Below, one piece after another: positions 886 to 51,074 of a stretch of DNA of 64,000 nt (positions are counted from its first letter, which is position 1; every line of letters begins with the position of its first letter). Source of the stretch: an uncultured Verrucomicrobiota bacterium (GTDB taxonomy: Bacteria > Verrucomicrobiota > Kiritimatiellia > PWTM01); assembly GCA_964610105.1 (NCBI GenBank), contig CAZSUU010000015.1, positions 11,600-75,599 of the forward strand, written 5' to 3'. A model generated the notes under the pieces. That model was not told the DNA's origin. It ran no database searches and saw only the letters and a list, made by a program, of their open reading frames with translations. Position numbers and translations under genes: made by a program.

Positions 886-2445
886 ATGCGTCGGGCCCTG
901 GCCATCTTGCTCTGCGGATTTCCCGTCTTTTCCGCCCGCGCCGCCGAACCGGTGTTCCTCGCCGATTTCGAGGGCGCGCGCCCCGGGGCCGCATGGGGCG
1001 GCTGGGATGGCGGCGCGCGGATCGTGGAGAGCGGCGAGGGGGGGCAGGCGCTGGAGGTCGCCATCGCGCCCGGCGGTCCCCCGACCCGGCTCGTCCATCG
1101 CCCGCTGCCTCTGGATGAACTGCGCGGCGCACGGCTGCGATGCGAGGCGATGGTCCGCGCGTACGGCGTGACGGAGCCGCCGAACGCCTGGAACGGCATC
1201 AAGTTCATGCTGCACGTCCAGGCTCCGGCCGGCGATCGCTGGGCTCAGCAGAACGGCGTGTGGGGCACCTTCGACTGGAAGAGGATCCGCTTTCTCGCCT
1301 CCGTCCCGGCCGACGCGACGGCGGTCACGCTCTACCTGGGTCTCGAGTCGGCCGCCGGCGCCGCGCGGTTCGACCGGGTGCGGATCACCCGCGTCGCGGC
1401 GGCGCCGGCTCCCCCGCCCCGCCCCCCCGAAGGCCCCGTCTTCAAGGGCCACGACGTCCCCCGCCTGCGCGGCGCGATGGTCGGCCCCGACGCGACGGAG
1501 GACGATCTGCGCGAGCTGGGTCGCGGCTGGAAGGCGAACCTCATCCGCTGGCAGCTCATCAACCACCCCGGGCCGAACGGCCGGCTCGCGCCGGAGCAGT
1601 ACGACGCGTGGCTGGATCGCGAACTGGGGAAACTCGACCGCGTTCTCGGGTGGTGCGAACAGTACGGATTGCGGGCCGTGATCGACCTTCACTCGCCGCC
1701 GGGCGGGAAAGGGACGATCTCGGGGTACGCCGGCACGGACGACGCGCTCTTCACGGACCGCGCGGCGCAGGACAAGTTCGTCGCCATCTGGAGGCGGATC
1801 GCCGCCCGCTACAGGGACCGCCGGGCGGTGTGGGGCTACGACCTGGCCAACGAGCCGGTGGAGGAATACGTCGAGGAGGGCTGCGACGACTGGCGAGGGC
1901 TCGCCGCGCGCGCCGCGAAGGCCATCCGCGAGATCGACCCGGCGCGCGCGATCATCGTCGAAGCCCCCCCGTGGGGCAGTCCGGAGAGCCTGAGGGACTT
2001 CGTGCCGATCGAGGTCTCGAACGTCGTGTACAGTTGCCACATGTACGTGCCGTCGGAATTCACCCACCAGGGTGTGTTCCGACATACGGCGCGGTCCTTC
2101 GCCTATCCGGGCGCCATCGACGGGGTCCTGTGGGACAAGGCCGCGCTCGAGAAGGCGCTCCAGCCGGTGGTCGAGTTCCAGAAGCGCCACAACGTCCACA
2201 TCTACATCGGCGAGTTCAGTGCGATCCGGTGGGCGCCGGACGAGAGCGCGTTCCGATACCTGAGGGACGTCATCGACATCTTCGAAGACCATGGGTGGGA
2301 CTGGAGCTACCACGCCTTCCGCGAGTGGGATGGCTGGAGCGTCGAACACGGACCGGACCGGCAGGACCCTGCGCGAAGCCGCGCGCCCACCCGTCGGGAG
2401 GAGCTGCTTAAATCGTGGTATGCCAAGAACCGGAGGTTCCCGTGA
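886..2445 (+). CDS. secreted glycoside hydrolase family 5 (cellulase/mannanase-like) with a roughly 200-aa N-terminal extra domain
   Basis: N-terminal signal peptide (MRRALAILLCGFPVFSARA). GH5 catalytic motifs LANEP (acid/base) and IGEFS (nucleophile) are present. The opposite-strand ORF 448..2349 is Arg/Gly-rich junk. Confidence 0.8.
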   Translation: MRRALAILLCGFPVFSARAAEPVFLADFEGARPGAAWGGWDGGARIVESGEGGQALEVAIAPGGPPTRLVHRPLPLDELRGARLRCEAMVRAYGVTEPPNAWNGIKFMLHVQAPAGDRWAQQNGVWGTFDWKRIRFLASVPADATAVTLYLGLESAAGAARFDRVRITRVAAAPAPPPRPPEGPVFKGHDVPRLRGAMVGPDATEDDLRELGRGWKANLIRWQLINHPGPNGRLAPEQYDAWLDRELGKLDRVLGWCEQYGLRAVIDLHSPPGGKGTISGYAGTDDALFTDRAAQDKFVAIWRRIAARYRDRRAVWGYDLANEPVEEYVEEGCDDWRGLAARAAKAIREIDPARAIIVEAPPWGSPESLRDFVPIEVSNVVYSCHMYVPSEFTHQGVFRHTARSFAYPGAIDGVLWDKAALEKALQPVVEFQKRHNVHIYIGEFSAIRWAPDESAFRYLRDVIDIFEDHGWDWSYHAFREWDGWSVEHGPDRQDPARSRAPTRREELLKSWYAKNRRFP

Positions 2446-3266: not shown

Positions 3267-4118
3267 ATGAGCAATGTGGCGAAAGCGAAGTATCTCCTCT
3301 CCCGCCTGGCCGTGTGCAGTTGGTCGCTTCAGCCGCGGGATCCGGCGCACCTGGCCGAACGCGTCAAGGCCACCGGCCTGAAGCGGGTCCAGCTCGATCT
3401 CGACCCCCTGCGCGAGCAGCCGGAGGCGTGGGGCGATGTGGCCGCCACGCTGGGCGCGCAGGGCATCGAGATCGTCTCGGGGATGTTCCGGACCGTGGGC
3501 GAGGACTACACCACGCTCGAGACCATCCGTCGCACCGGCGGCGTGGTGCCCGACGCCACGTGGGAGCAGAACTGGACCCACGTGCAGGCGACGGTGCGGA
3601 ACGCGCGGACACTCGGGCTCCCGTTCGTCATGTTCCACGCGGGTTTCCTTCCGCACGATCCCGCCGACCCCGCCTTTCCGAAGATGATCGACCGCGTGCG
3701 GCGGATCGCCCGCGTCTTCGCCGACGAGGGCATCACCCTCGGGTGCGAAACCGGCCAGGAGACGGCGGAGTCCCTGAGCCGTTTCCTCGACCACCTGGAT
3801 GAGCCCCACGTCGCCGTCAACTTCGACCCCGCGAACATGATCCTGTACGGGAACGGCGATCCCATCGAGGCCCTCCGGCGGCTGGGCGGGCGCGTGAAAT
3901 CGTGCCACGTCAAGGACGCGTTGCGCACCCAGGCGCCCGGCACGTGGGGCGAAGAGGTGGCGGTTGGACGGGGGGAAGTGGACTGGCCGGCCTTCTTCGC
4001 GACGCTGGCGGAGATCGAATTCCCGGGCTGGTGCTGCTTCGAACGCGAGGCGGGAGACGATCGCGTGGGCGACATCGCCGCGGGCCGGGTCTTCGTCGAG
4101 AAACTCCTGGGGGCGTGA
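3267..4118 (+). CDS. sugar phosphate isomerase/epimerase (xylose-isomerase-like TIM barrel)
   Basis: Internal ATG (MSNVAKAKYLLSRLAVCSW) within ORF 2598..4118. Motifs FHAGF, CETGQE and AVNFDPANM are typical of AP-endonuclease-2/xylose-isomerase-like TIM barrels. The upstream part of the long ORF overlaps rdgB and is Arg-rich. The stop lies 2 nt before the next start. Confidence 0.72.
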   Translation: MSNVAKAKYLLSRLAVCSWSLQPRDPAHLAERVKATGLKRVQLDLDPLREQPEAWGDVAATLGAQGIEIVSGMFRTVGEDYTTLETIRRTGGVVPDATWEQNWTHVQATVRNARTLGLPFVMFHAGFLPHDPADPAFPKMIDRVRRIARVFADEGITLGCETGQETAESLSRFLDHLDEPHVAVNFDPANMILYGNGDPIEALRRLGGRVKSCHVKDALRTQAPGTWGEEVAVGRGEVDWPAFFATLAEIEFPGWCCFEREAGDDRVGDIAAGRVFVEKLLGA

Positions 4119-4120
4119 TC

Positions 4121-5143
4121 ATGATCAACGTGGCCATTGTCGGTCTGGGATTCATGGGGGTCACCCACATCAAGGCCTACCGGAAGATCCCGGGGGTCCG
4201 GCTCGCCGCGGTGTGCGACGCCGCGCGGTTGCCCGAGGACGGCGACCTGTCGTACGTCACCGGCAACGTCGGCGACGCGGATGCGGTGCGGCTGGACATG
4301 TCGCAGGTGAAGGCGACGAAGGACATCGCCGATCTCCTGGCGGACCCGTCGATCGATCTCATCGACCTGTGCGTGCCCACGATGGCCCATCCGAAGCTGG
4401 CCGTTGCGTCGCTGCGCGCCGGCAAGCACGTGGTCTGCGAGAAACCGCTCGCGCGCACCGCGGCGCTCGCCCGTGAGATCGTCGACGCGGCCCGGACGGC
4501 CCGGGGGTTCTTCATGCCCGCGATGTGCATCCGCTTCTGGCCCGAGTACCGGTGGCTGAAAGGCCTGATCGACGCCGGCGCCTACGGGCGTCTGCTGGCG
4601 GCGCGGTTCCGCCGCGTGTCCGAGCTCCCGGCCTGGGGACGGGAGCACTTCCTCGACGGCGCGAAATCGGGCGGCGCCATCCTCGACCTGCACATTCACG
4701 ACGCCGACTTCGTGCAGCACTGTTTCGGGCGGCCCGCGGCGGTGTTCGCGAGCGGGTTCACGCTCCACAGCGGCGCGATCGACCACGTCGTGGCGCAGTA
4801 CCGCGTCGCGGGCGGGGCGGCGGTGTATGCCGAGGGCGGCTGGGTGATGTCGGCGGGGCACGGTTTCCGCATGGCCTACACCGCGATCTTCGAGCGCGCG
4901 ACGGCGGACTACGACTGCACGCGTGGCGTCGACGCTCTTCGGCTGTTCACGGAGGGACGCTCGCCGCAGACCGTCGCCGTGGGCGGCGAGGACGGGTACG
5001 TCGGCGAATTGCGCCACATGGTCGAGTCCATCGCCGCCGGCCGTGCGCCGACGGTGGTGACGGCGGAGGACGGCGCCGCGGCGGTGGCGCTCGTCGAGGC
5101 CGAGGAGCGCTCCATCGCCAGCGGTCAGGTGGTCGCATTGTAG
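4121..5143 (+). CDS. Gfo/Idh/MocA family NAD(P)-dependent oxidoreductase
   Basis: N-terminal Rossmann motif MINVAIVGLGFMG and the EKPLA motif. Internal ATG of ORF 3902..5143, positioned 2 nt after the upstream stop. An alternative GTG start exists at 4115. Confidence 0.8.
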   Translation: MINVAIVGLGFMGVTHIKAYRKIPGVRLAAVCDAARLPEDGDLSYVTGNVGDADAVRLDMSQVKATKDIADLLADPSIDLIDLCVPTMAHPKLAVASLRAGKHVVCEKPLARTAALAREIVDAARTARGFFMPAMCIRFWPEYRWLKGLIDAGAYGRLLAARFRRVSELPAWGREHFLDGAKSGGAILDLHIHDADFVQHCFGRPAAVFASGFTLHSGAIDHVVAQYRVAGGAAVYAEGGWVMSAGHGFRMAYTAIFERATADYDCTRGVDALRLFTEGRSPQTVAVGGEDGYVGELRHMVESIAAGRAPTVVTAEDGAAAVALVEAEERSIASGQVVAL

Positions 5144-5288
5144 CCGCCGGCAGAACCGCCCCGCCGGTTCTGACCCGCGCGACCGGCATGCGACAATCCA
5201 GGCATCCGCTGCCCTCTCACACTTCGAGAGGTGTGAGAGGGCGCCTTTCGGTGGTTCCTTGCCTTCCGTGTGCGCCCGCCGCGCCGGG

Positions 5289-6488
5289 TCAGGCGGTCGG
5301 CCGTGCGCGGGCCGACTGGCGCACGCGACAGGCAAGGGGTTCCTCCGGCCCGAGCGCGCAGACTTCGCGGAGAACGGCATCAAGGCCGCCGGCTCGAATT
5401 CGCGCCTGCAGCTCCAGGGCGTGCGGATCGGAGGATTCGTCGAAGGTCAGGGCGCCGGCGATCCCGCAGGCGAGTCCTTCCGGCGCGATGCCGTGCTTCT
5501 CCGCCAGGCGCGCCGCTCCGACCAGGCGTTCGCCGGGCGCCAGTTTGCGGAGCGGATCACGGCCGAGACGGATCACCGGGTCGCCCAGCGCGCGGTTGGC
5601 GAAGCGCATCATCAGGCCATCGATGTGCTCCTGGAAGGCCACCGGTTCGAATCCGTATTCCGCGATCAGCGCCCGACCGGCCTCGTCCGCCGCGGCCTCC
5701 ACCCGTTCACGCACCCAGGCATCCTCCAGCGCCTCCCACCCGTAGACGTGGCCCCTCGCATACCCCAGATACCCGAGGATCGCGTGCGCCGCGTTGTGGA
5801 TGAAGAGCTTCCGCGCCGCATAGGCCTCGAACGGCGCGACGGCCTTCATCCCGACAATCCGCGGGACGGGGCCGACCAGGGCCTCGCGATCCACCGGCAG
5901 CACCTTGTACGGCTCGGCGACCGCCCGCGCCGGATCCGCCGCTCGCTGTTCCTCGGTCGGCACCGGCGCCATTCGCGCGATGACCGCCGCCACGAAGCCC
6001 ACCCGCGCCCGCAGGGGCTCGCGCCACGGCGCCGGCAGTGCGCCGGACACCGCCTCCCGCAACAGGTCCGGCGCCCCGTGCAGGTTCTCGCACAGGATGA
6101 TGTTGAGCGGATCCGTGCGACCCGCCTCCCACCGGCGAACCAACCCCGCCGCCAGCGCCGCCGCCAGCGACGCCAATTCGCGCGCGCCAACCGACGTGGC
6201 CGCCAGCGAGGCCCCGGCCACCGCCTCGGCCACCGCCTGGCGGTCGCCCGCCGACACGGCTCGCACGGGTCCGATGGTCAGCTCCTCGGCGCGCGTGAGT
6301 CCGGCCAGCCGCAGGGGATAGCAGCCCCGCCGGTTGAGCGCCTCGATGAGCGGTTGATCGACATCCACGAAGACGATCGCATAGCCGGACTCGCTGAGAA
6401 GCTGTCCGATGAATCCGCGGCCCACCGCGCCCGCGCCGAAAATGACGGCGGAGGGCCGGTCCGCGGCCGTTCGCGGCGGTTCACTCAT
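5289..6488 (-). CDS. mannitol dehydrogenase family protein (mannitol-1-phosphate 5-dehydrogenase-like)
   Basis: Rossmann motif VIFGAGAVGRGFIG and KLFIHNAAHAILGYLGY, which resembles the MtlD family. Start chosen at MSEPP; its ATG overlaps the stop of the upstream kinase (ATGA). The plus-strand ORF 5259..6860 covering the same DNA has no recognisable domains. Confidence 0.72.
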   Translation of the reverse strand: MSEPPRTAADRPSAVIFGAGAVGRGFIGQLLSESGYAIVFVDVDQPLIEALNRRGCYPLRLAGLTRAEELTIGPVRAVSAGDRQAVAEAVAGASLAATSVGARELASLAAALAAGLVRRWEAGRTDPLNIILCENLHGAPDLLREAVSGALPAPWREPLRARVGFVAAVIARMAPVPTEEQRAADPARAVAEPYKVLPVDREALVGPVPRIVGMKAVAPFEAYAARKLFIHNAAHAILGYLGYARGHVYGWEALEDAWVRERVEAAADEAGRALIAEYGFEPVAFQEHIDGLMMRFANRALGDPVIRLGRDPLRKLAPGERLVGAARLAEKHGIAPEGLACGIAGALTFDESSDPHALELQARIRAGGLDAVLREVCALGPEEPLACRVRQSARARPTA

Positions 6489-7681
6489 GGGCGCTCCCAC
6501 GCGCCCGATGCGCGATCGCGCTTCCAGTCCGGCCCCGGCGCGGGCATGGGCCATCGTTTCCAACCCCGGGAAATCCGCCGCATCGTCTCTTCCCAGGTCC
6601 GGATGCCGCCCAGCGCATCCGGCGCCTCCACGTTGCAGGCGCCCACCGCGACCGCGGCCGTGACGGCCTCGGGCAGCGCACACCCGCGCAGCAGCGCCGC
6701 GAGGAAGCCGGCCACCGTGGCATCGCCCGCTCCCGTCGTCCCCGCCACCCGAACCCTGAAACAGGGCGCCCAGATCTCCCGTCCGGCCCACTCCCGCGGC
6801 CGCCGGGGGCGAGCCGCGCCGATCGCCTCCATCGCCGCGCCCTCGGCCGTCCGCACGTAAAGCCCTCGATGACCCAGCTTGAGCCCGACCACGCGCGCGC
6901 CCCAGCCCAGCAGCTCACCGGCGAGTTCCCGCAGCAGCGCCGCGTCGGCGCCGGCCAGCACCCCGCCCTCGCCGCCGCCGGCGTACAGGGCGTCGAACCG
7001 CTCGCGCCGCAGCATGAACAGCGTCTCCTCGAAGTTGGGCATGAACACATCCACGAACGGCATCGCCGCCCGCAGGATCGCGCGCCAGTCGGCGCGCCCG
7101 GCGGGAGATGCGGAATCGGGAAACGACAGATCCAGCGAGGTGGTCACGCCGAGCCTCTTTACCCGACGCATCATCGCCGCCAGCTCCCGCCCATCCCGCT
7201 CGAACATGCGGCGCATGAGCGAGGGGTAGCCAAAATGGAAGAGGCGGGCATCCGCCACGGCATCGTAGGGCACGTCTCCGGCGCAGAAGGTGTCGTTGGC
7301 GCCGGGACAGTGCAGGAACATGCGGTCGATGCCGGGAGGATTGAGGATGACGGTGTAGGATGTGGCCGCGCCGGCGTCCTCGATCATGCCGTCGGCCAGC
7401 CGGCCGCCGCGCGCGGTCACGATGCCGCGGATCACGCCCCCGAACGCATCCGCGCCGATCTTGCCGGCGAGGCGCGTGGCGAGGCCGAGCCGGTGCAGCA
7501 CCAGCCCGGTGTTCGAAACCGCGCCGCCGGTGCAGAGCGTCGCAGGTCCGACCTGCGTCAGCCGCCCCGGTCTCAGCAGCTCGTCCAACCGGCCATGCGG
7601 CGCGACGGGCAGGTCCGGAATGATGTCCAGACAGATGTGGCCGGCCACCACGGCGTCCCAGCGTCCACTTCCCCTTTTCAT
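6485..7681 (-). CDS. PfkB-family carbohydrate kinase (ribokinase-like)
   Basis: C-terminal GAGD motif (VAGTTGAGDATVAGFL) and anion-hole region typical of PfkB kinases. Start at MKRGSGRWDAVVAGHICLD, with an alternative start at 7717. The 5' 300 codons of ORF 6485..8617 overlap a plus-strand gene and are treated as non-coding. Confidence 0.72.
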   Translation of the reverse strand: MKRGSGRWDAVVAGHICLDIIPDLPVAPHGRLDELLRPGRLTQVGPATLCTGGAVSNTGLVLHRLGLATRLAGKIGADAFGGVIRGIVTARGGRLADGMIEDAGAATSYTVILNPPGIDRMFLHCPGANDTFCAGDVPYDAVADARLFHFGYPSLMRRMFERDGRELAAMMRRVKRLGVTTSLDLSFPDSASPAGRADWRAILRAAMPFVDVFMPNFEETLFMLRRERFDALYAGGGEGGVLAGADAALLRELAGELLGWGARVVGLKLGHRGLYVRTAEGAAMEAIGAARPRRPREWAGREIWAPCFRVRVAGTTGAGDATVAGFLAALLRGCALPEAVTAAVAVGACNVEAPDALGGIRTWEETMRRISRGWKRWPMPAPGPDWKRDRASGAWERP

Positions 7682-7819
7682 GAACCCATCATGCCCTGTC
7701 TCGCGCCATTTTCCCATGCGATTCACCGTCCACACTTCGGCTTGCCGTCCGAGGCGGGAAGCGCGATGCTGCCGCGCATGGTGAAGTCGCAGACCCATGA
7801 CAAAGGAGCCCGCCCGTCC

Positions 7820-8665
7820 ATGAATCGACGACATTTCCTGTACCTCAGCGCCGCGGCGGCCGCAGCCAGCGCTCCGGTCCTCCCGGGATCCGCGTCCGCC
7901 GGAGAGCTTACCGGCCGCATCCACAAGAGCCTCAAGTGGAGCATGGTCGCCGATCGCACAGCGTCGATGGGTGAGACCTTCAAGAAGATCAAAGCCTGCG
8001 GTTTCGAGGGCATCGAGCCCAATTTCGGCGAGGTGAAGGACGCCGCCGAGTGGAAGGCGGCTAGCCGCGATTCCGGCCTCGCCATCGACTGTGTCGTCAG
8101 CCCGTCGGTCCGCGGCATCGAGGCGGCGGTCGATCTCTGCAAGGATCTGGGCGGCGACAGCATCCTCGTGGTTGCGCCCTACGACCACGCCAGGAGCTTT
8201 GCGGACAACTACCAGCAGTCCCTCACCGCCCTCAAGGCCGCCGCGCCGCACGCCGAGAAGCAGAAGATCAAGATCCTGGTTGAAAACGTGTGGGCCACAT
8301 TTCTGATCAGTGCGCTGGACATGGCGAAGTTCGTTGATGACGTTGGCTCGCCCGCCGTCGGCGTTCATTACGACGTGGGTAACGTCGTGCGATGGGGGGT
8401 TTCGGAACACTGGATCGAGGTGCTCGGCAAACGCATCGGCAAGCTCGACATCAAGGAGTACAGCCTGCCCCTGGCCATGAAGGAGGGCATGTCCAAGGGA
8501 TTCGGCGTTCCACTCGGCGAAGGCAGCATCAACTGGGCGAAGGTACGCGCGGAGTTGAAGAAGCTGGACTTCACCGGCTGGGCGGCGGCGGAAGTGGGGG
8601 GCGGAACCTGGGATCATCTCACGGACATCGCCAAGCGCATGGACAAGGTGCTGGGTCTGGCATGA
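7820..8665 (+). CDS. Tat-exported xylose-isomerase-like TIM-barrel protein (sugar phosphate isomerase/epimerase family)
   Basis: AAAGGAG Shine-Dalgarno sequence about 10 nt upstream of the ATG. Twin-arginine signal MNRRHFLYLSAAAAAASAPVLPGSASA. TIM-barrel motifs LVENVW and HYDVGN. Internal start of ORF 6869..8665. Confidence 0.75.
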   Translation: MNRRHFLYLSAAAAAASAPVLPGSASAGELTGRIHKSLKWSMVADRTASMGETFKKIKACGFEGIEPNFGEVKDAAEWKAASRDSGLAIDCVVSPSVRGIEAAVDLCKDLGGDSILVVAPYDHARSFADNYQQSLTALKAAAPHAEKQKIKILVENVWATFLISALDMAKFVDDVGSPAVGVHYDVGNVVRWGVSEHWIEVLGKRIGKLDIKEYSLPLAMKEGMSKGFGVPLGEGSINWAKVRAELKKLDFTGWAAAEVGGGTWDHLTDIAKRMDKVLGLA

Positions 8666-9465
8666 AGAAGCCCGTTGCCCTCGCCATCGGGGCGCATCCC
8701 GACGACGTCGAATTCACGATGGCCGGCACGCTTCTCCTGCTCCGGGAGGCCGGCTGCGAGATCCACGTCATGGCGGTCGCGACCGGCTCCTGCGGGAGCA
8801 TGGTGCATTCGGCGCGCGCGCTGCGCGCGATCCGCCGGCGTGAGGCGCAGGCCTCCGCCGCCCTCCTCGGGGCCGAGTGGCATCCGAGCCTCACGGACGA
8901 CCTCGAGATCGTCTACTCGGTTTCCCTCCTCCGCCGGCTGGCCGCGGTGGTGCGCAAGGTCCAGCCCTCGATCCTGCTCACCCACCCGCCGACCGACTAC
9001 ATGGAGGATCACGCCAACACGTGCCGGCTCGCGGTGTCGGCCGCCTTCGCGCGCGCGGCGCCGAATTTCCGCTCGGTCCCGCGCCGCCCGCCCTTCGCCG
9101 GCGACGTCACGATCTACCACGGCATGCCCAGCGGGCTGCGCGATCCGCTGCGGAGGCGGGTGATGGCCGGGGCGTTCGTGAATACGACCCGCGTCCACGC
9201 GCGCCAGCTCGAGGCCCTCGCGCAGCACCGCAGCCAGCAGGAGTGGCTCGATGCATCGCAGAAGATGAACTCCTACCTGGCGACCATGGAGGAGCGGTCG
9301 CGCGAGGTCGGCCGCATGTCGCGGCGATTCCGGTACGCCGAGGGCTGGCGTCGCCACCTGCACTTCGGCTTCTGTGCGGCGGAGGCCGATCCCCTCCGCG
9401 ACCTTCTCGGCAGGAACTACCGGATCGACCAGCGGTACGAACGGGCGCTGGAGCGGGGCGCATGA
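8662..9465 (+). CDS. PIG-L/LmbE family N-acetylglucosaminyl deacetylase
   Basis: The hallmark [10 protein letters not shown] metal-binding motif is near the N-terminus ([18 protein letters not shown]). The ATG overlaps the upstream stop (ATGA). Confidence 0.8.
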
Positions 9466-9562
9466 ATGTCTCCACTGCTTGTCGGTGGTCCCTGCGGGGT
9501 GGAGGGGCGAGCCATGCGAGCCCGGCCGATGCGCGTCGATTCGTCGCGAAAGGAGAGTAGCC

Positions 9563-10495
9563 ATGTCCCGCACGCTCAGTTCCGTGGCGCCCGACTGGTG
9601 GGATTACACGACCCTTGATGCCGCGTTGGTGTCCGAAGCGGCGGCGCTGACGCCCGAGCGGATGAGGCGCCTGTCGCGGCCGGGTTTTCAGGTGGTCTTT
9701 CACGACACGCTGGAGGACTTCTACCTTGCCGAGGCGCTGGAATACGTCGACGCGTGGCGACAGTCCACGGACGACAATCCCGTCGGCGTCTGCGGTCCCA
9801 TCGGCCCCACCGAGCAGCTTCCGCTCGTCGCGCGGATCGTCAACGCCCTCGCGCTCGATGTGCGGTCCGCGCATTTCTGGGGCATGGACGAATGGGTCGT
9901 CGACGGCCGCGAGGTGCCGGCGGATCACCCGCTGTCGTTCGAAAAGGCCGATCGCGACCTGTGTTTCCGGCGCATCGATCGGCGGCGGGTCATGCCGGAT
10001 GCGCACCTGCATTTCCCGAAGGCTGACACGCGCGCCTACCGGGCGACCTGGTCGGCGGGGGTCCGCTGCGCCGTGATGCAGGGGGGCCAGGGCGACGTGA
10101 AGCACTGGGCGTTCAACGATCCGTTTCGCCGCAAGGGCCGGTATCGCCAGGCGCCGCCCCCGGCGCGGGAGTTTCTGGCCCTTCTCGCGCGGGTCGTCGA
10201 CCTGCACCCGCTCACGGTCGCGCAGAACGCCCGCACGAGCGGCGGCGGCAACATCGCCCTGGTCCCCACGCAGGCCGTCACCGTCGGGCCGGCGGAAACC
10301 TGGAAGGCGGAGAAGGTGTCGATCTGGCAGGCAGGCCACCACGACAATCCGTTCGGCCAGCGGCTGACCTGCCTGATGGTCGCGCGGCGGATCGTCGACA
10401 CCGCCGTACCCATGTCGCTGCTGGCGCTCCACCCGAACGTGGAGTTCCACTACTACCGGGGCGGCCTCGGAACCTGCGCGGTGGAGATGCACTAG
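9563..10495 (+). CDS. glucosamine-6-phosphate deaminase/isomerase family protein (NagB-like)
   Basis: AAAGGAGAG Shine-Dalgarno sequence upstream. Motifs [15 protein letters not shown] and [15 protein letters not shown] resemble the NagB/6-phosphogluconolactonase fold. Internal start of ORF 9374..10495. Confidence 0.62.
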
Positions 10496-10514
10496 ACAGA
10501 CGGAGGAGCATGCG

Positions 10515-11783
10515 ATGAAGACGACCTGCACGCGACGTTCGTTTCTCCGGGCCGGCGCCGTGGCGGCGACGACCACCCTGGCGGCGCGGGCGCTCGATGC
10601 CGCCACCCGCGCCCGGGCGATCGGCGCGAACGACCGGATCCGCCTCGGGCTCATCGGCTGCGGCGGACGCGGCGTTGGCGCCCACCTCGCGGCCGTGCGC
10701 GAGCACGCCCAGGCGGCGAACCTCGAGGTCGTGGCGGTGACGGATCCCTGGCGGCCGGCCCGGGAGAACGCCGCGGCGAGGGCGAAGGAGTGGCTCGGCC
10801 GCGAACCGCGCCTGTGCTCGACCTACCGCGAACTCCTCGCCCTGCCGGAGGTGGACGCGGTGATGATCGCCTCCCCCGATCACGCCCACGCGACCCACCT
10901 CGAAGCGGCGGCCAGGGCGGGCAAGCACGCGTACTGCGAGAAGCCGATGGCCATCGGGATGGACGAGCTGATCCGCGCGGTGGACGCCGTGAAGGAGTCG
11001 GGCATCGTGCTGCAGGCCGGCACCCAGTTGCGCAGCACGCCGGGGGCCGTCGGCGCCCGCGACCTGCTCAAGACCGGCGTGCTGGGCCGGATCTCGCGCT
11101 GCGAGCAGGTGCGCAACGGCGACCGGCCCTACTGGTACGGCTACCAGAAGAAGGAGGTGAAGAAGGAGGACCTGGACTGGGCGGAGTTCACGATGGGACG
11201 CACGCGGCGGCCGTTCGATCCGACGCTCTATTCGGCGTGGTACGGCTACTACGAGTTCTCGCAGGGGCCGGTTCCGCAGTGGGGCAGCCACTACATCGAT
11301 CTCATTCACTTCGTCACCGGTCTGCACCTGCCCGAGACGTGCGTCTGCCTCGGCGGCGTCTACACGTGGAAGGACGAGAACCGGTTCACGGCGCCCGACC
11401 AGGTGCACGCCCTCTGGCACTATCCCGAAGGCGTGATGGTGAGCTACACGACGAACTTCGGAAACAGTTTCGGCAACGGCACGCGCGTGCTCGGCGAGAA
11501 GGGCCTGCTCCGGCTCGACGACGCCGACAAGCCCGTCTACACGGCCGAGGGCGGGATCAAGCGCGACGGATCGATCCGGGGCGAGAACAAGGTCACCCCG
11601 GTCGCGTGCCCGGACCATTTCCTCAACTGGTTCCAATGCCTCCGCAGCGGCGCCACGCCGCAGGCGCCGCTGGAGGCGGGCTACCAGCATTCCGTCGCGT
11701 GCATCATGGCCATGACCTCCTATGAGACCGGCGGCCGCACGCGCTTCGATGCCACCCAACGCCGCATCGTGAAGGAAGGCTGA
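10515..11783 (+). CDS. Tat-exported Gfo/Idh/MocA family oxidoreductase
   Basis: Twin-arginine signal MKTTCTRRSFLRAGAVAATTTLAARA. Rossmann motif RLGLIGCGGRG and the EKP motif. The opposite-strand ORF 10278..11936 was rejected. Confidence 0.8.
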   Translation: MKTTCTRRSFLRAGAVAATTTLAARALDAATRARAIGANDRIRLGLIGCGGRGVGAHLAAVREHAQAANLEVVAVTDPWRPARENAAARAKEWLGREPRLCSTYRELLALPEVDAVMIASPDHAHATHLEAAARAGKHAYCEKPMAIGMDELIRAVDAVKESGIVLQAGTQLRSTPGAVGARDLLKTGVLGRISRCEQVRNGDRPYWYGYQKKEVKKEDLDWAEFTMGRTRRPFDPTLYSAWYGYYEFSQGPVPQWGSHYIDLIHFVTGLHLPETCVCLGGVYTWKDENRFTAPDQVHALWHYPEGVMVSYTTNFGNSFGNGTRVLGEKGLLRLDDADKPVYTAEGGIKRDGSIRGENKVTPVACPDHFLNWFQCLRSGATPQAPLEAGYQHSVACIMAMTSYETGGRTRFDATQRRIVKEG

Positions 11784-11793
11784 GCCGGTTCGT

Positions 11794-13323
11794 ATGAATA
11801 CCCGCGCATGGGCATGGGTGGTGGTGGCCGGGTCGGCCCTGTGGGCCCCCTTGTCTCCGACCAGGGGCGCGGCGGCCGGGCCTTCGCTGTTCAAGGCCGG
11901 TTTCGCGGAGGCGGACATCACGCCGGAGGTCGGCATGGAGGTGCCCGGCGGCTACGGCAAGGCATTCCACCGGACGTTCAGCGATCCGTGCAAGGCGCGC
12001 GCCGCGGTGTTCGACGACGGGCGGATGCGGATGGCGGTGGTCAGCGTCGATGCGCTGGTCGTGCCGCGCGGCGTCGTGACCGCGGCGAGGGAGGAGATTC
12101 GCAAGCGGTGCGGCATCGAACCCTCCGCCGTCCTGATCGCCGCGACCCACTCCCACTCCTCGGGCCCCACGGGCATGGTGCAGCCGGGCGAGTTCGACGG
12201 CGCCCCCGAATTCGTCCGACGGCTGGCCTATGAACAGTCGTCCTGCGCCGATGCCGCCTACCTGGAGCGGGTGCGCCGGCAGATCGTCGCCGCGGTGACC
12301 AACGCCCACGCGCGCCGGACGGACGTGCGCTGCGGCGCGGGCTTCGGCCACGAGGATCGCGCGGCGTACAACCGCCGCTTCCGCATGAAGAGCGGGCCGG
12401 TGTTCACGCATCCGGGCAAGGGCAACCCGGACATCGTGGAGCCGGCCGGGCCGATCGACCCGCAGGTGGGCGTCCTCGGCGCCTGGACGACGGACGACCG
12501 CCTCGCCGGCTGCCTCGTGAACTACGCGTGCCACGCCACCACCGGCGCGGCGGGCATCTCCGCCAATTGGATCTTCCACCTGGAGCGGGTGATCCGGGGC
12601 GCGTTCGGCGCGGAGGCGATCGTGCTCTTCCTGCCCGGATTCTGCGGCGACGTGACGCAGGTGGACAACCTCGACCCCCGCCAGTATCGCTCGGGCAAGG
12701 GCTCCGCCGCCTTCGTCGGGGGCCGGGTGGGCGCCGAGGCGGTGAAGGTGCTTCTGGGGATGGAACCCGGCCCTCTCGGACCGCTCGATGCCCGATCGAA
12801 GGGGATGACCCTCGCGCGGCGCAGACCGGACCCGGATCGCGTGAAGCGCTGCCTCGAACTCGCGCAGCGGAAGCCGGAGGAGGTGGGCGCCACCGAGTGG
12901 ACCTTCGCGAAGGAGATCGTGCTGCTCGACGCCGACCTCGCCCGCCGGCCCGCCGCGGAGGCGGAGGTGCAGGCCCTGCAGATCGGACCCGTCGCGCTGT
13001 TGGGCAACCCGGGCGAGGTGTTCTGCCAGTTGGGGCTCGATCTCAAGAAGGCATCGCCGTTCCCGTTCACCTTCCCGGTGGAGCTGGCCAACGGATTCGT
13101 CGGCTACATCCCCACCGAGGAGGCGCTCGGCGAGAAGGGCGGCGGATACGAGACGCGGCTGACGAGCTACAGCAACCTCGAGCCGGCGGCGGGCCCGAAG
13201 CTCAACGCGGCGGCGCTGGAACTCGCGCGCGCGATGACGCCGGGGGCGCTTCCCGAGCCGCCGCAGGTCCCGCCCTTCAAAGCGCCGTGGTCCTACGGCA
13301 ACGTGCCGCCGGAACTGAAGTAG
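11794..13323 (+). CDS. neutral/alkaline non-lysosomal ceramidase-like hydrolase (N-terminal domain family)
   Basis: Signal peptide, then the GYGKAFHR and ATHSHSGP motif arrangement seen in neutral ceramidases. 509 aa. The antisense ORF 11704..13365 was rejected. Confidence 0.55.
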   Translation: MNTRAWAWVVVAGSALWAPLSPTRGAAAGPSLFKAGFAEADITPEVGMEVPGGYGKAFHRTFSDPCKARAAVFDDGRMRMAVVSVDALVVPRGVVTAAREEIRKRCGIEPSAVLIAATHSHSSGPTGMVQPGEFDGAPEFVRRLAYEQSSCADAAYLERVRRQIVAAVTNAHARRTDVRCGAGFGHEDRAAYNRRFRMKSGPVFTHPGKGNPDIVEPAGPIDPQVGVLGAWTTDDRLAGCLVNYACHATTGAAGISANWIFHLERVIRGAFGAEAIVLFLPGFCGDVTQVDNLDPRQYRSGKGSAAFVGGRVGAEAVKVLLGMEPGPLGPLDARSKGMTLARRRPDPDRVKRCLELAQRKPEEVGATEWTFAKEIVLLDADLARRPAAEAEVQALQIGPVALLGNPGEVFCQLGLDLKKASPFPFTFPVELANGFVGYIPTEEALGEKGGGYETRLTSYSNLEPAAGPKLNAAALELARAMTPGALPEPPQVPPFKAPWSYGNVPPELK

Positions 13324-14978: not shown

Positions 14979-17882
14979 CTACAGGAAGAAACCCTGTTCA
15001 TAGATGGCGCGGTTATCGGCCGGCGGCGCTCCGGCATCGGGCCGCGAGGATGCCGGGCGAGGCGCGGACAGCCCGACCTTCCACTCCCGGTACTGCTGGC
15101 GCACGCGATCCAGCACGTCGGCGAAGTACTGGAGGTGAGGATTCCGGTCGTCGATCATCTGCCCCAGCCCTATGAAGGTGTAGATGTTCACCCACTCCCC
15201 GCCCACTTCGATCTCGAGGTCCGGATTCGGAACATAGTAACCCCGCCGAAGCCGCAGGAAGAGCCGCCGGTTGCGGGGCGCCGGGCTGAACATCTCGTTG
15301 CCGGCCAGCGCCGCCGTGATCGCCCCGCGATGCCGGCGATGCAGCGGCAGGACGCGATTCGGGAACTGGCCCAGGTGGTGCACGATGTCGCCGGTCTGGA
15401 GGCCGGGGACCGCATACTCGATCTTGCGGCGCAGCAAGTCCTGCAGCAGCGCCACCATGACCTCGAAGACGAAGAACTCCATGCGGTGCCGGTCGATCTT
15501 GTGAAGCTGGCCGTCGGTCTTCACGTTGACCGCGGCGGGGGCCAGCAGATCGTAGATCCGCCCCAGGCTGTCGCGGGCGTAGCCGGCCACCATGAACGCC
15601 TGCCGCAGCGCGACATGAAAGGCCGTCCGTCCGAAGTTGTCACGCAGATGCGGATTCGAGCCCTGCCGCATGAGATCCTCGACAAGATCCGGCATGCCGC
15701 GACAGGCCGCGATCATCAGCGGCGTCTGGTTCAGCGGATTCCTGAAGTCCACGCCGTATTTCTCCAGTTTCTGCCGCAGCACGGTCAGGCTTCGCTCGGC
15801 ATAGTCGGCCTGATACTTGCGCTCGATGTTCGGCAGTTCCGCGACGAAACGCGCCGCGCGGCTGAACTTCATTTCTTCCAGACGGCAAAGGCGTGGGAGG
15901 TCGCAGTACGTCGCCGCGTACTCGAACAGCAACTGCTTGGCCTGCTTGTTGAATCGTTCCGGATCGAACGCCTCGCGGTCAAGGTCCGCGAGGTTCGAAG
16001 GTGTCAGCACCTTCCAGGGGACCGGCTGCTGGGACAGGATCGTTCGCCGGATCGCCTCGGCCTGCTCCTCCTTGCCCTGCATCTCCAGCCGGCGCGCCTC
16101 GGTCTTCCACTCCTCCGCGGTCGAGGACTGCGACCGGACCTTCACGCCCGTGGTGGCGGGGCGAAGATCCAGCAGGGCGAGGAACGGGTGGACGCCGTGC
16201 TGCTCGACCACGTACAACGTTCGCACCGCCCTCGTGACGGCGACAAAGAAGGCGTTGATGAAGAACTTGTAGACGTCCAGCGACTTGTCCGTCTTGTCGC
16301 GCGCCCGCGCATACTGGAGCTCGGCCTCCAGGTCGGCGGCGGACACGCCCTCGGCGATCTCGGCAAAATCGCGGTTCGACGACGACACCATGTTGAACAG
16401 CACGATGGTCTCGTATTCGAGCCCCTTCGCCTCCTGGATCGAGAACACCAGCGGCGTGCGAAACGATCGACGGGCCCCGGCCTTGTCCTCCTCCCGCAGG
16501 ACGATCACGGCCACGCGCGCGGAGCGGCACGTCTTGTCGTCCAGGTCGCGCACGACCGCGGGGCCGGCGTCGAGCAGATGCGCTTCTCCCTCCACTCCGG
16601 CGGTGCTGCGGGCCAGGTAGGTGCTCTCGCGGTCCACCGAGCCGAACCGCGCGTTCTTGACCCGCAGGATCCGGTTGGCGAGGTCGGTGATGCAGGGGGC
16701 GTTGCGGTAGTTGGCGTTGAGGATGCGCACGATCTCGGCCCGCCCCTGCATCCGCTGCTCGTAGAACATGCTCTTGAGGGCGGACCACGAGAAGAAGTTG
16801 GGGTGCACCACCTGGTTCGCATCGCCGCAGAGCACGAAGTTGCCGGGCTGACGCAGGGCGGCCAGGACCAGGTGCACCTGCATGTTGGTCAGGTCCTGCA
16901 CCTCGTCCAGCATCACGGCATCGTAGCGCTTCTCCACATGCGCCTGCGCGCGGTGCGACTCGATGTTGAGGTCGTAGAGGCCGTCCTCCGCGAGCCAGGA
17001 CCGGTACTTCTCGAACAGGGCGTACACGGCTTCGCGCTCGTCGGCGTTAAAGATCGATCGCCGGACGCCCAGCGACAGGTAGTCCTCCCGCTCGAGCCAG
17101 GGCCGGTCGACGGCGGCGCCGGTCAGCACGCCGCTGAACTCCTCGAAGAGCCGGTGCGCGTCCTTGACCGGCGAAGCGGTCCGATGACGGGCAAACCAGC
17201 CGGCAAAGGCGCGGAAGCTCACCGGCCGTCCCGCCGGAACCCGCACACTCTCGAGGTACTCCTTGAACGACAGGAAATCCACGTCCTGCCGGTCGTTCTC
17301 ATACCCGTGGGAGAAGTAGAGGCGGCTGGCGTGCTCCGCCAGGAACGGGGAGAGCGTGATGTACGCCACCTCGCCCGTCAGCCTCTTGAGTTTCTCCAGC
17401 ACCACGGCCGTCTTTCCGCTTCCGGCCGAGCCGATCAGAATGAGGGGCGGAGGCAGGTGCAGGGCCTCGTGCTGGTCGTCGTCGAACGAGAGCACCTTGT
17501 CGAGGAGGTGGAAATACCGCCGCCCGGGGTGCACGTACGCCAGGGCCAGGGCCTCGGCGGCCGCATCGTCCGGCGGGGCGTGCAGCGGTTGGAGTCGGGT
17601 CTCGTCCACGACCGCGCCGTTCAGGAACCGCGCGCGGTCATAGGCATGGTTCTCGATGATCTCGAGAAGGAGAATGCACCGCGCGCCCGCGTAGTCGCCC
17701 AGGCGGAAGACCAGACGGTCGGCGGCCGACAGTTCCGCGCGGTAGTACGGCGTCGGCGTCAGTTTCTTGACGTTGGCCGCGCGGAAGTCGCCGGCCCGCA
17801 GCGCCGCGACCACCCGCTCGAAGGCCCCTGCATGACGACCGGGGTGTAGATCCCCGTGAACCAGGATTTCCATGGGGGGCAT
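14979..17882 (-). CDS. UvrD-like superfamily-1 helicase with an N-terminal RelE/YoeB-like segment and C-terminal ankyrin repeats
   Basis: Walker A LILIGSAGSGKTAV. DExx motif II MLDEVQDLT. Motif III LCGDANQ. Motif V/VI SIQEAKGLEYETIVLF and VAVTRAVRTLYV. Residues 40-90 (KKLTPTPYYRAELSAADRLVFRL...CILLLEIIENHAYDRA) follow the RelE/YoeB toxin pattern. The C-terminal NPLNQTPLMIAACRGMPDLVEDLMRQGSNPHLRDNFGRTAFHVAL is an ankyrin repeat. The antisense ORF 14853..17849 is junk. Confidence 0.8.
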   Translation of the reverse strand: MPPMEILVHGDLHPGRHAGAFERVVAALRAGDFRAANVKKLTPTPYYRAELSAADRLVFRLGDYAGARCILLLEIIENHAYDRARFLNGAVVDETRLQPLHAPPDDAAAEALALAYVHPGRRYFHLLDKVLSFDDDQHEALHLPPPLILIGSAGSGKTAVVLEKLKRLTGEVAYITLSPFLAEHASRLYFSHGYENDRQDVDFLSFKEYLESVRVPAGRPVSFRAFAGWFARHRTASPVKDAHRLFEEFSGVLTGAAVDRPWLEREDYLSLGVRRSIFNADEREAVYALFEKYRSWLAEDGLYDLNIESHRAQAHVEKRYDAVMLDEVQDLTNMQVHLVLAALRQPGNFVLCGDANQVVHPNFFSWSALKSMFYEQRMQGRAEIVRILNANYRNAPCITDLANRILRVKNARFGSVDRESTYLARSTAGVEGEAHLLDAGPAVVRDLDDKTCRSARVAVIVLREEDKAGARRSFRTPLVFSIQEAKGLEYETIVLFNMVSSSNRDFAEIAEGVSAADLEAELQYARARDKTDKSLDVYKFFINAFFVAVTRAVRTLYVVEQHGVHPFLALLDLRPATTGVKVRSQSSTAEEWKTEARRLEMQGKEEQAEAIRRTILSQQPVPWKVLTPSNLADLDREAFDPERFNKQAKQLLFEYAATYCDLPRLCRLEEMKFSRAARFVAELPNIERKYQADYAERSLTVLRQKLEKYGVDFRNPLNQTPLMIAACRGMPDLVEDLMRQGSNPHLRDNFGRTAFHVALRQAFMVAGYARDSLGRIYDLLAPAAVNVKTDGQLHKIDRHRMEFFVFEVMVALLQDLLRRKIEYAVPGLQTGDIVHHLGQFPNRVLPLHRRHRGAITAALAGNEMFSPAPRNRRLFLRLRRGYYVPNPDLEIEVGGEWVNIYTFIGLGQMIDDRNPHLQYFADVLDRVRQQYREWKVGLSAPRPASSRPDAGAPPADNRAIYEQGFFL

Positions 17883-20366: not shown

Positions 20367-20392
20367 GGCCTCCGCAAACGCAAGGCGCGGTC

Positions 20393-33851: not shown

Positions 33852-33870
33852 GCCCCGGCGTTCCTGCCCC

Positions 33871-35349: not shown

Positions 35350-35399
35350 CCTCACTTCTCCACGGTGCGGCCCTCGGCGAAGGCCAACAGCTCGCACTC

Positions 35400-36317: not shown

Positions 36318-36343
36318 GTATGGGCCTCCGATCGCGGTTCGGG

Positions 36344-38926: not shown

Positions 38927-39013
38927 GCGCCCATCATACCGATCGCCCTGCAAACGACGATGAAAAGCGATTGGTTTCGTGATAGAACCTTCAATGGTGG
39001 GACGGGATGGAAC

Positions 39014-40111: not shown

Positions 40112-40199
40112 TCCCGCGCCGCGTCCGCAGGCCTCCTCCCGCCAGAACGGCGGGCTGCAGGCGGCCCGCCGTTCGACCGGACCCGGGATCCTCTTCCCG

Positions 40200-40979: not shown

Positions 40980-41044
40980 CTGTGGTCTCCGTATCTGGAC
41001 AGATGACGTATAGACCGGCCCTTGACAGGGGGGGGAGCCGAATC

Positions 41045-41070
41045 TACTTGTATCATAGTGATACAGGTTT
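41045..41070. promoter_or_regulatory. perfect palindrome GTATCA-TAG-TGATAC in the divergent promoter region; candidate GntR-type operator
   Basis: A 6-3-6 perfect inverted repeat sits between the PEP-CTERM gene start and the regulator gene start. It fits the GntR-family GT-Nx-AC operator pattern. Coordinates are within about 2 nt. Confidence 0.45.
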
Positions 41071-41078
41071 CCACGCCG

Positions 41079-50577: not shown

Positions 50578-50616
50578 AGCCGTCCCGCCTCCGCTCCCCC
50601 GACGCCGGCCCGCCTT

Positions 50617-51048: not shown

Positions 51049-51074
51049 GGTCTACTCCTTCCCGCCGAGGGCGC

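Follow-up and report, generated by a model that had tools for sequence, protein, structure and literature searches.

Glycoside cleavage by way of a 3-keto intermediate is a recently recognised and broad alternative to the classical glycosidases, characterised so far for neutral sugars and glucuronides and in gut bacteria. In the closest described systems, AL1-4 of Alistipes and BT2156-2159 of Bacteroides thetaiotaomicron (hereafter AL/BT), a Gfo/Idh/MocA oxidoreductase with tightly bound NAD, exported by the twin-arginine translocation (Tat) pathway, oxidises C3 of the glycoside; the aglycone is then eliminated by a triosephosphate isomerase (TIM) barrel of the "sugar-phosphate isomerase" kind or by a DUF1080 protein, the glycal is hydrated by DUF1080, and a cytosolic Gfo/Idh/MocA protein is thought to reduce the 3-keto sugar (10.1101/2024.03.25.586180; PMC8121099). 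The P2B11 cluster comprises two oxidoreductases and two TIM barrels (Nasseri et al., 10.1101/2024.03.25.586180). Here we describe a locus with a similar set of parts from an uncultured Verrucomicrobiota bacterium (Kiritimatiellia, PWTM01), found in positions 11,600 to 75,599 of contig CAZSUU010000015.1 (assembly GCA_964610105.1). This whole stretch of 64,000 nucleotides (nt) is called the window. Nine genes, G1 to G9 (Table 1), encode in order a cytoplasmic TIM barrel (G1) and Gfo/Idh/MocA oxidoreductase (G2), a mannitol-1-phosphate-dehydrogenase-like protein (G3), a PfkB kinase (G4), an exported TIM barrel (G5), an LmbE-type N-deacetylase (G6), a divergent NagB-like protein (G7), an exported Gfo/Idh/MocA oxidoreductase (G8) and an exported hydrolase with a neutral-ceramidase fold (G9).

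The likeness to AL/BT lies in the Tat-exported Gfo/Idh/MocA protein, the exported TIM barrel and the cytosolic Gfo/Idh/MocA protein; G8, G5 and G2 (with G1) fit the AL/BT roles in both localisation and family, and relatives of G8 carry DUF1080/PF06439 and a sugar transporter, as the AL/BT systems do. Sequence similarity, however, is remote: G8 scores 80.7 bits against BT_2158_fam (NF058561; cutoff 750), in an alignment that starts at its residue 6 and covers model positions 1-262 of 487, and G2 scores 31.5 bits against BT_2159_fam (cutoff 650). Unlike AL/BT, the window contains neither a DUF1080 gene nor a SusR-type or DUF6377 regulator, and it adds the LmbE deacetylase, the NagB-like protein and the ceramidase-fold hydrolase. 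An earlier annotation of this DNA by a model, which we call the original prediction, knew of no description of such a combination in one bacterial locus. For the two dehydrogenases and two TIM barrels, which are the P2B11 layout, this is wrong, but the addition of the other three genes does seem undescribed.

The new element, then, seems to be the recurrent coupling of oxidative cleavage genes to LmbE, NagB-like and ceramidase-fold genes, a combination found in many soil and water bacteria. We read it, tentatively and at a little less than even confidence, as an amino-sugar branch of oxidative glycoside cleavage by 3-oxidation and elimination. The observations behind this scheme are the gene content, the export signals, the family and fold assignments, the conserved catalytic residues, and links that recur in gene neighbourhoods and gene fusions. 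No description of the fused TIM and ceramidase-fold protein, of the Gfo-LmbE-NagB-like trio or of their tie to a Tat-exported Gfo/Idh/MocA protein was found in the open-access literature, which is weak evidence of novelty.

Gene neighbourhood in the window and in related genomes

Since the window is about 70% G+C, raw lists of open reading frames (ORFs) are full of spurious frames, and genes were called from a third-position GC (GC3) frame plot with inspection of start codons; families were assigned by Pfam and NCBIfam profile searches. The original prediction had a ten-gene cluster at 3267-13323. Those limits are exact, being the start of G1 and the end of G9, but the frame plot gives nine genes, to which the prediction's own list also sums, and independent gene calls on identical contigs in other assemblies match the nine-gene map except for a G5 start 54 nt further upstream. 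Most of its family assignments stand: two xylose-isomerase-like TIM barrels (PF01261 on G1 and G5), of which G5 has a Tat signal; two Gfo/Idh/MocA dehydrogenases (PF01408/PF02894/PF22725 on G2 and G8), of which G8 has one; a mannitol-dehydrogenase-like gene (G3, PF01232 and PF08125) and a PfkB kinase (G4, PF00294) on the opposite strand; and a PIG-L/LmbE deacetylase (G6, PF02585). From the geometry of the junctions, that is, strands, overlaps and gaps, the locus is predicted to form three transcription units: G1-G2, spaced by 2 nt; G4-G3, overlapping by 4 nt on the minus strand; and a tight G5-G9 operon, in which the start of G6 overlaps the stop of G5 by 4 nt and the G6-G7, G7-G8 and G8-G9 gaps are 97, 19 and 10 nt.

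About 190 related loci were compared, many of them near-duplicates. Eighty loci from reference genomes were anchored on G7, with the window genes mapped onto them and neighbouring ORFs clustered without bias; 19 loci in metagenome contigs, at 54-74% identity, were anchored on G8, with neighbours counted within 6 kb; and, as a control, 55 loci (490 kb) from the same scan whose anchors were distant Gfo paralogs were scored by identical criteria. G6 is directly upstream of G7 in 51 of the 80 loci, and in 30 G7 loci G6 is itself preceded by a cytoplasmic Gfo/Idh/MocA gene that belongs to another orthologous group ("cluster 6") and is 25-28% identical to G2. Around G7 there is a Gfo gene in 35 of the 80, a ceramidase-fold gene within 6 kb in 10 and a TIM barrel in 7; the ceramidase-fold gene is often immediately adjacent to G7 (L011, L030, L056, L070, L078), and true orthologs of G1 and G2 are near G7 in six loci. 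The 19 G8 orthologs have as neighbours a TIM barrel (13 loci), a second Gfo (8), DUF1080/PF06439, a major facilitator superfamily (MFS) transporter and a sulfatase like N-sulfoglucosamine sulfohydrolase (SGSH; 5 each), LmbE (4), NagB-like (3) and ceramidase-fold genes (2, plus 2 loci with a truncated G8). In the 55 control loci TIM, LmbE, NagB-like, DUF1080, MFS and sulfatase genes were all absent, and a ceramidase-fold gene was found once. Moreover, the ordered and contiguous block G1-G2-G6-G7-G8 occurs in three lineages, namely the window, L087/L088 (identities 66, 70, 64, 79 and 72%, in gene order) and L060, a Lentisphaerae metagenome-assembled genome (MAG).

By this synteny a functional link is supported for all but two of the nine genes, G3 and G4. 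The idea of a single cluster therefore survives in part: relatives confirm the G1-G2-G6-G7-G8 block and the TIM-barrel and ceramidase-fold links, but the window has three transcription units, and G3 and G4, like the GDSL hydrolase gene G10 beyond the cluster, were each found in 0 of 99 related loci. These three genes are lineage-specific additions. 

A set of marine relatives (L091-L094, L098-L100, L103) shows the pair of G8 and TIM barrel with Tat-signal sulfatases bearing an N-sulfoglucosamine-sulfohydrolase C-terminal domain, and the same loci hold an MFS transporter, a CehA/McbA- or DUF3604-like metallohydrolase and DUF1080. This set of neighbours suggests sulfated amino-sugar glycans as the substrates at sea. 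As a separate matter, loci typical of environmental Verrucomicrobiota occur in several MAG records (L001, L002, L016, L026, L031, L035, L047) that bear the name Akkermansia muciniphila, Klebsiella, Bifidobacterium or Bacillota, and these taxonomic labels are probably wrong, from mis-binning or placeholder names.

Two independent modules could give much of this pattern. A neutral-sugar 3-keto-glycoside module (G5, G8, G1, G2) would lie beside a separate amino-sugar salvage pair, G6-G7, serving as an alternative to NagA/NagB, with G9, G3-G4 and G10 unrelated to either. In most of the 80 G7 loci, indeed, G6-G7 stand without G8, a TIM barrel or a ceramidase-fold gene, often among housekeeping genes; in most marine loci G8 comes with a TIM barrel and DUF1080 and without G6 and G7; and the window has three transcription units. 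What makes us think this explanation rather unlikely is that G5 to G9, joined by overlaps or short gaps, make up one tight operon, that the order G1-G2-G6-G7-G8 is conserved in three lineages, that LmbE lies directly beside G8 without G7 in L091/L092, and that ceramidase-fold genes occur with both G7 and G8, while the control has none of these partners bar the one ceramidase-fold gene.

The oxidoreductases and TIM barrels

G8 has the two-domain Gfo/Idh/MocA fold (PF01408 71.5 bits, PF02894 43.7 bits), and its N-terminus, MKTTCTRRSFLRAGAVAATTTLAARA, includes the twin-arginine signal TRRSFLRAG. Its nearest solved relatives, DgpA, YjhC/NanOx, levoglucosan dehydrogenase and 8tdf/8tdh, are sugar C3-oxidoreductases, and we regard G8 as a candidate periplasmic glycoside 3-dehydrogenase. 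A comparison with the NAD-dependent alpha-N-acetylgalactosaminidases of glycoside hydrolase family 109 (GH109) is instructive, as these too are Tat-exported proteins of Gfo/Idh/MocA fold and act on N-acetylhexosamine glycosides by C3 oxidation and elimination. Unlike them, G8 has no C-terminal domain PF21252 and matches GH109 structures weakly (29 bits), and whereas GH109 performs all steps in one active site, G8 is partnered with separate lyase-type proteins.

Among these partners, G5 has a PF01261 domain (107.7 bits) and the Tat signal MNRRHFLYL (TIGR01409, 20.7 bits, above the cutoff of 16.7). In L093, L094 and L097-L100 the gene just upstream of the G8 ortholog encodes a relative of G5 (36-40% identity). 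Invariant E, D and H residues occur in the family, of which a profile built from four members matches weakly to 5tnv (27.6 bits), to the 3-keto-glucoside 4-epimerase YcjR (24) and to IolE (18); G5 is a candidate 3-keto-glycoside lyase. In the cytoplasm, G2 carries the canonical EKP lysine and D-x3-H motif, has levoglucosan dehydrogenase, DgpA and 1,5-anhydrofructose reductase among its solved relatives, and is a probable reductase of a 3-keto sugar. Orthologs of G2 (47-70% identity) accompany G1, a PF01261 protein (114 bits) whose best solved relative is 3tva, an uncharacterised planctomycete TIM barrel (129 bits); G1 orthologs in turn (51-66% identity) adjoin G2, G6 or G7 in L017, L020, L029, L034, L060, L087 and L088. 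The first of two pathways put forward in the original prediction, a periplasmic route of glycoside 3-oxidation and elimination, is supported by the C3-oxidoreductase relatives and by G8 orthologs that occur with exported TIM barrels, DUF1080 and MFS genes, partners that the control loci do not have.

The deacetylase and the NagB-like protein

G6 is a clear member of PF02585 (82.3 bits, cutoff 28.2) with the zinc motif AHPDDVE. Its best subfamily is BshB1 (87 bits vs 182.5), and its closest structures are archaeal diacetylchitobiose deacetylases. In the archaeal chitin route the diacetylchitobiose deacetylase Dac, of the LmbE/CE14 family, is followed by a glucosamine kinase and then by glucosamine-6-phosphate deaminase. 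Our locus resembles that route in pairing an LmbE-type enzyme, closest to Dac, with an amino-sugar deaminase in place of NagA; it differs in that the deaminase is of a divergent NagB type and not GlmD/SIS, that no kinase is conserved and that the third partner is a Gfo/Idh/MocA protein. Fitness-based work on the use of glucosamine and N-acetylglucosamine (GlcNAc) in Bacteroidota invoked NagA, NagK, NagP and NagX and not the present gene set (PMC9007349).

For G7 the name NagB-like holds as far as the catalytic motifs go. WGMDEW and KHWAFNDP align with the catalytic Asp (MDEY) and His (GHIAFNEP) motifs of the human and Vibrio NagB proteins (1ne7, 5hj5) and are invariant in 20 homologs, in which mean column identity is 85%. 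At the level of families it does not hold: there was no Pfam match at E 0.01 or better, and the nagB model TIGR00502 gives E 3e-5 and 23.4 bits against a cutoff of 236.9. An AlphaFold model from a shallow alignment was not confidently folded (predicted local distance difference test, pLDDT, 54). The residues that bind phosphate in the classical deaminase appear to be replaced in G7, where, in what is a weak alignment, the positions of the Thr41 loop and Lys208 read PIGPT and GHHD. This want of a lysine at the aligned phosphate-ligand positions hints at a non-phosphorylated substrate.

The G7 family is large: over 8000 relatives are 71-83% identical, and they come from Verrucomicrobiota, Planctomycetota, Lentisphaerae, Bacteroidota, Acidobacteriota and Armatimonadota. 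Its conservation (71-83% across at least six phyla) is far above that of the neighbouring G6 (48-67%) in loci L001-L080. Annotation pipelines label the family "glucosamine-6-phosphate isomerase".

Such exceptional conservation across phyla would also be expected of a housekeeping role in the envelope, in which peptidoglycan, lipopolysaccharide (LPS) or lipid A of the cell itself would be recycled or remodelled by the pair of G8 and fused TIM-ceramidase-fold protein (described below) and by the Gfo-LmbE-NagB-like trio. Lipid A does carry amide-linked acyl chains on glucosamine, and in several genomes the genes lie beside dapF, LysM, LpoB, RNase HII, Dus and FabG genes. We nevertheless hold this account to be very unlikely: in the window, L087, L091-L100 and L030 the genes have glycoside hydrolase, sulfatase, MFS sugar transporter and DUF1080 genes as neighbours, a setting typical of nutrient acquisition, and the families have the patchy distribution usual for catabolic genes.

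The ceramidase-fold protein and its fusion to a TIM barrel

The original prediction called G9 a ceramidase-like protein, and this proves right for the fold and for the zinc and catalytic residues but not for membership of the family, since G9 scores 23.7 bits against PF04734 (cutoff 32.1) and 21 against NF041649 (cutoff 1200). An AlphaFold 2 model (pLDDT 79.5, predicted template modelling score 0.84) was matched by Foldseek in the Protein Data Bank only to the neutral ceramidases 2ZWS, 2ZXC and 4WGK, at E values of 6e-21 to 2e-19, the next match having an E value of 1e-2; the TM-score is 0.63 normalised by query and only about 0.5 normalised by target. Motifs ATHSHSSGP, CHATT and PGEVF align with those of 2ZWS, and the zinc and catalytic residues H119, H121, H247, E408, Y438 and Y452 are invariant in 26 sequences, fusions included. 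With the enzymes of Pseudomonas aeruginosa (2ZWS) and human (4WGK), then, G9 shares the fold of the catalytic domain (E about 1e-20), the HxH/His/Glu/Tyr residues and export. It differs from them in having only 15-19% identity to real ceramidases, in its length of 509 amino acids (aa) against about 650 (630-670), without the C-terminal beta-sandwich domain or any second Pfam domain, and in its partners, which are sugar oxidoreductases, TIM barrels and amino-sugar enzymes. We describe G9 as a predicted exported zinc hydrolase of neutral-ceramidase fold.

A second line of evidence ties this fold to the oxidative module. Directly downstream of a G8 ortholog in L104 (650-2923) is an uninterrupted ORF of 757 residues, which joins a PF01261 TIM barrel with Tat signal to a ceramidase-fold domain of full length, the latter 34% identical to G9 over residues 21-481. 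At least 120 clusters of sequences have this architecture, with lengths of 752-785 aa and identities of 76-100%; they come from Phycisphaerae, Sedimentisphaerales and other Planctomycetota. In two complete chromosomes of Phycisphaerae MAGs and in a long contig (L167-L169, fusion at 8001-10274) the order is G8-type oxidoreductase, fusion, dapF. In the verrucomicrobial locus L030 a ceramidase-fold gene and a TIM barrel of the fusion's subfamily are separate adjacent genes between G7 and a DUF1080 gene. Because the fused TIM barrels belong to a subfamily different from that of G5, the fusion link holds for "exported TIM barrel" and not as strict orthology.

Some observations on the fusion family stand by themselves. 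The family (about 757 aa) is large and highly conserved in Phycisphaerae and Sedimentisphaerales; its gene always comes straight after a Gfo/Idh/MocA gene (about 417 aa) and is usually itself followed by dapF, and database labels for it vary between "neutral ceramidase" and "sugar phosphate isomerase". In the complete Phycisphaerae chromosome CP070723.1 (L167), the G8-type gene upstream of the fusion was called at 7335-7964 as a protein of 209 aa with C-terminal domains only, which could be a frameshift, a pseudogene or an assembly error.

Taken at face value, the fold would suggest that glycosyl-ceramides or other N-acyl glycolipids are what the periplasmic triad breaks down: the lipid aglycone would be freed by G8 and the TIM lyase through oxidation and elimination, and the ceramidase-fold enzyme would then cut its amide. 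No other fold matches G9 and all the zinc and catalytic residues are in place; a fusion of lyase and ceramidase fold would be sensible for consecutive steps on a hydrophobic product; and an exported GDSL lipase/esterase follows G9. This account seems to us decidedly unlikely, given the low identity, the scores below both the Pfam and NCBIfam cutoffs and the missing C-terminal domain, given that no genes of sphingoid-base or fatty-acid catabolism are nearby, and given that the strongest partners of the ceramidase-fold genes in the G7-centred sample are LmbE and NagB-like genes, neither of which a ceramide route needs. Unlikely as well, though slightly less so, is a more general form in which the Tat-exported oxidoreductase, the TIM barrel and the ceramidase fold, the last two fused in Phycisphaerae and all three separate here (G8, G5, G9), constitute an unrecognised periplasmic machine that strips glycolipids or N-acylated amino-sugar lipids, whether glycosyl-ceramides or lipid-A-like molecules, coupling oxidative-eliminative deglycosylation directly to amide hydrolysis, while processing of the amino sugar is completed in the cytoplasm by LmbE and a NagB-like deaminase that does not depend on phosphate. 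If it existed, such a machine would give bacteria a new way to turn over membrane glycolipids, which are abundant, and the neutral-ceramidase fold its first function that is linked to sugars or is not that of a ceramidase. A GH5 ("cellulase" family) gene for a protein of 519 aa (window 886-2445), located two genes before G1, has no NCBIfam assignment. As GH5 includes endoglycoceramidases, its subfamily would matter for the glycolipid explanations.

The inositol model

The second pathway of the original prediction was of an inositol type, in which IolG-, IolE- and IolC-like enzymes, a GlcNAc-inositol deacetylase and a ceramidase catabolise glycosyl-inositol-phosphoceramides or lipids of the glycosylphosphatidylinositol type. 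The superfamilies are indeed those of myo-inositol catabolism (Gfo/Idh/MocA, PF01261 TIM barrel, PfkB); the best NCBIfam names for G2, G8, G1 and G4 are IolG, IolE and IolC, and G6 belongs to the PIG-L family as G9 does to the ceramidase fold. No equivalog cutoff, however, is approached: against IolG (TIGR04380, cutoff 355) G2 scores 114.5 and G8 84.4 bits, against IolE (TIGR04379, cutoff 290) G1 scores 38.9 and G5 24.9, and against IolC (TIGR04382, cutoff 300) G4 scores 69.1. IolB, IolD, IolA and IolJ were not seen among the annotated genes of the cluster, its flanks or the rest of the window, nor a phospholipase among the annotated genes, nor a phosphodiesterase in the cluster or flanks. For the PIG-L reaction on GlcNAc-inositol the picture is no better, as G6 is closer to BshB1 and the diacetylchitobiose deacetylases than to MshB (TIGR03445, 19.3 bits, cutoff 224). 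Moreover, two of the proteins are exported, G8 relatives accompany DUF1080 3-keto-glycoside enzymes, and the supposed IolC-like kinase G4 is, with G3, never found with the other genes in relatives. Family scores appear already to have largely refuted the model, and we consider it extremely improbable.

A proposed amino-sugar branch

For the scheme that we favour, oxidative cleavage of glycosides with an amino-sugar branch, the chemistry of each step, the amino-sugar substrate and the role of G9 are what we infer from the observations above. The periplasmic module would consist of G8, G5 and G9 and would work like the "non-Koshland" AL/BT system. G8, presumably with tightly bound NAD(P), would oxidise the C3 hydroxyl of the terminal sugar; G5 would eliminate the aglycone across C1-C2, the 3-keto product being re-reduced later; and G9 would most likely remove or process the N-acyl group while still in the periplasm. 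The cytoplasmic module would comprise G6 as N-deacetylase, G7 as a NagB-type deaminase/isomerase, G2 as reductase and G1 as a TIM-barrel isomerase or hydratase, and would turn the imported 2-acylamido or 3-keto product into neutral sugar, acetate and ammonia. The putative third part is the kinase and polyol-phosphate dehydrogenase pair, G4-G3, together with the GDSL hydrolase. Implied as substrates are glycosides with an N-acylated or N-sulfated amino sugar as the terminal residue. We propose the amino-sugar branch because the recurrent partners, LmbE, the NagB-like G7 and the putative ceramidase-fold amidase, would act on the C2 substituent of amino sugars; amino sugars are also indicated by the neighbours of relatives, which include GH109-type genes (at L087 and L102) and genes of the N-sulfoglucosamine-sulfohydrolase type.

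Several points weigh against this scheme. Of the proteins in the cluster none reaches an NCBIfam equivalog cutoff, and the similarity of G8 to BT_2158_fam is both partial and far below that family's cutoff. For the G5 family the profile matched solved proteins weakly, with no clear relationship to solved 3-keto-glycoside lyases, and the TIM barrel joined to the ceramidase fold is of another subfamily. The window lacks DUF1080, as noted, and the cluster lacks a transporter. G6 and G9 look redundant if both are deacylases, and a close homolog of G9 sits in an unrelated gene context. The G6-G7 pair and the pair of G8 and fusion are often set among housekeeping genes (RNase HII, Dus, FabG, dapF) rather than in sugar loci. 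Near-duplicates leave only some 8 or 9 independent G8 lineages; and the choice of amino sugars as the probable substrate comes from gene context.

The locus and its relatives suggest an amino-sugar branch that is widespread in Verrucomicrobiota, Planctomycetota, Lentisphaerae, Bacteroidota and Acidobacteriota, and they draw attention to three uncharacterised components: the large ceramidase-fold family, including its conserved TIM fusion, the highly conserved NagB-like family and a dedicated LmbE deacetylase. If the proposal is right, it would give functions to abundant families now mis-annotated as "glucosamine-6-phosphate isomerase", "neutral ceramidase" and "sugar phosphate isomerase", and it would bear on how, in soil and water, carbon and nitrogen are cycled out of chitin, peptidoglycan, and amino-sugar glycans of mucin type or with sulfate.

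Lineage-specific genes and other features of the window

Of the genes that relatives do not share, G3 has NF002652 as its best equivalog (297.6 bits, cutoff 356), and the closest solved relatives of G4 are fructokinase and 2-keto-3-deoxygluconate (KDG) kinase, at about 40 bits. G10, which follows G9 after 158 nt, had no NCBIfam match and is a possible accessory esterase without conserved linkage. The flanks of the cluster are unrelated or housekeeping: upstream there are a fucose isomerase fragment, the GH5 gene and Ham1, and downstream a helicase/ankyrin protein is encoded on the opposite strand.

Table 1. Coordinates in the window of G1 to G10 and of the genes of a second catabolic cluster
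Gene or product	Positions	Strand	Family or other basis
G1, cytoplasmic xylose-isomerase-like TIM barrel, 283 aa, without signal peptide	3267-4118	+	PF01261
G2, cytoplasmic Gfo/Idh/MocA oxidoreductase, 340 aa	4121-5143	+	PF01408+PF22725
G3, mannitol-1-phosphate 5-dehydrogenase-like, 399 aa	5289-6488	-	PF01232+PF08125
G4, long PfkB sugar kinase, 398 aa	6485-7681	-	PF00294
G5, Tat-exported xylose-isomerase-like TIM barrel, 281 aa (299 aa from 7766)	7820-8665	+	PF01261, Tat signal
G6, cytoplasmic LmbE/PIG-L (CE14) zinc N-deacetylase, 267 aa	8662-9465	+	PF02585
G7, divergent NagB-superfamily protein, 310 aa	9563-10495	+	weak TIGR00502, NagB motifs
G8, Tat-exported Gfo/Idh/MocA oxidoreductase, 422 aa	10515-11783	+	PF01408/PF02894, RRSFL signal
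G9, exported neutral-ceramidase-fold zinc hydrolase, 509 aa	11794-13323	+	predicted fold, conserved residues
G10, exported GDSL/SGNH hydrolase, 429-446 aa	13533-14822	+	PF13472/PF00657, Sec-type signal
N-acylglucosamine 2-epimerase	32631-34028	-	NF052547 373 bits, cutoff 600
SGSH-like sulfatase	33952-35256	-	
NanA-like lyase of the dihydrodipicolinate synthase (DHDPS) family	35400-36347	-	
1231-aa fusion of NanM-type mutarotase repeats and sodium:solute symporter	36344-40039	-	
GntR/periplasmic-binding-type regulator	41022-42176		

A second catabolic cluster, of sialic-acid type, occupies 32631-42176 on the minus strand of the window (Table 1); GlcNAc, its end product, could feed G6 and G7. 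The gene immediately downstream of our locus (14979-17882, minus strand) encodes a protein of 967 aa with a UvrD/AAA-type helicase core and ankyrin repeats, an architecture unusual for a bacterium. A large leucine-rich-repeat protein at 19943-22183, an ORF of 746 aa that is given as 575 aa in independent annotations, adjoins NAD kinase and an FtsJ/S4 methyltransferase. At 49249-52373, on the minus strand, there are two tandem phenylacetate-CoA-ligase-like genes (AMP-binding and AMP-binding_C_2 domains; 442 and 432 aa) with an ORF of 143 aa between them.

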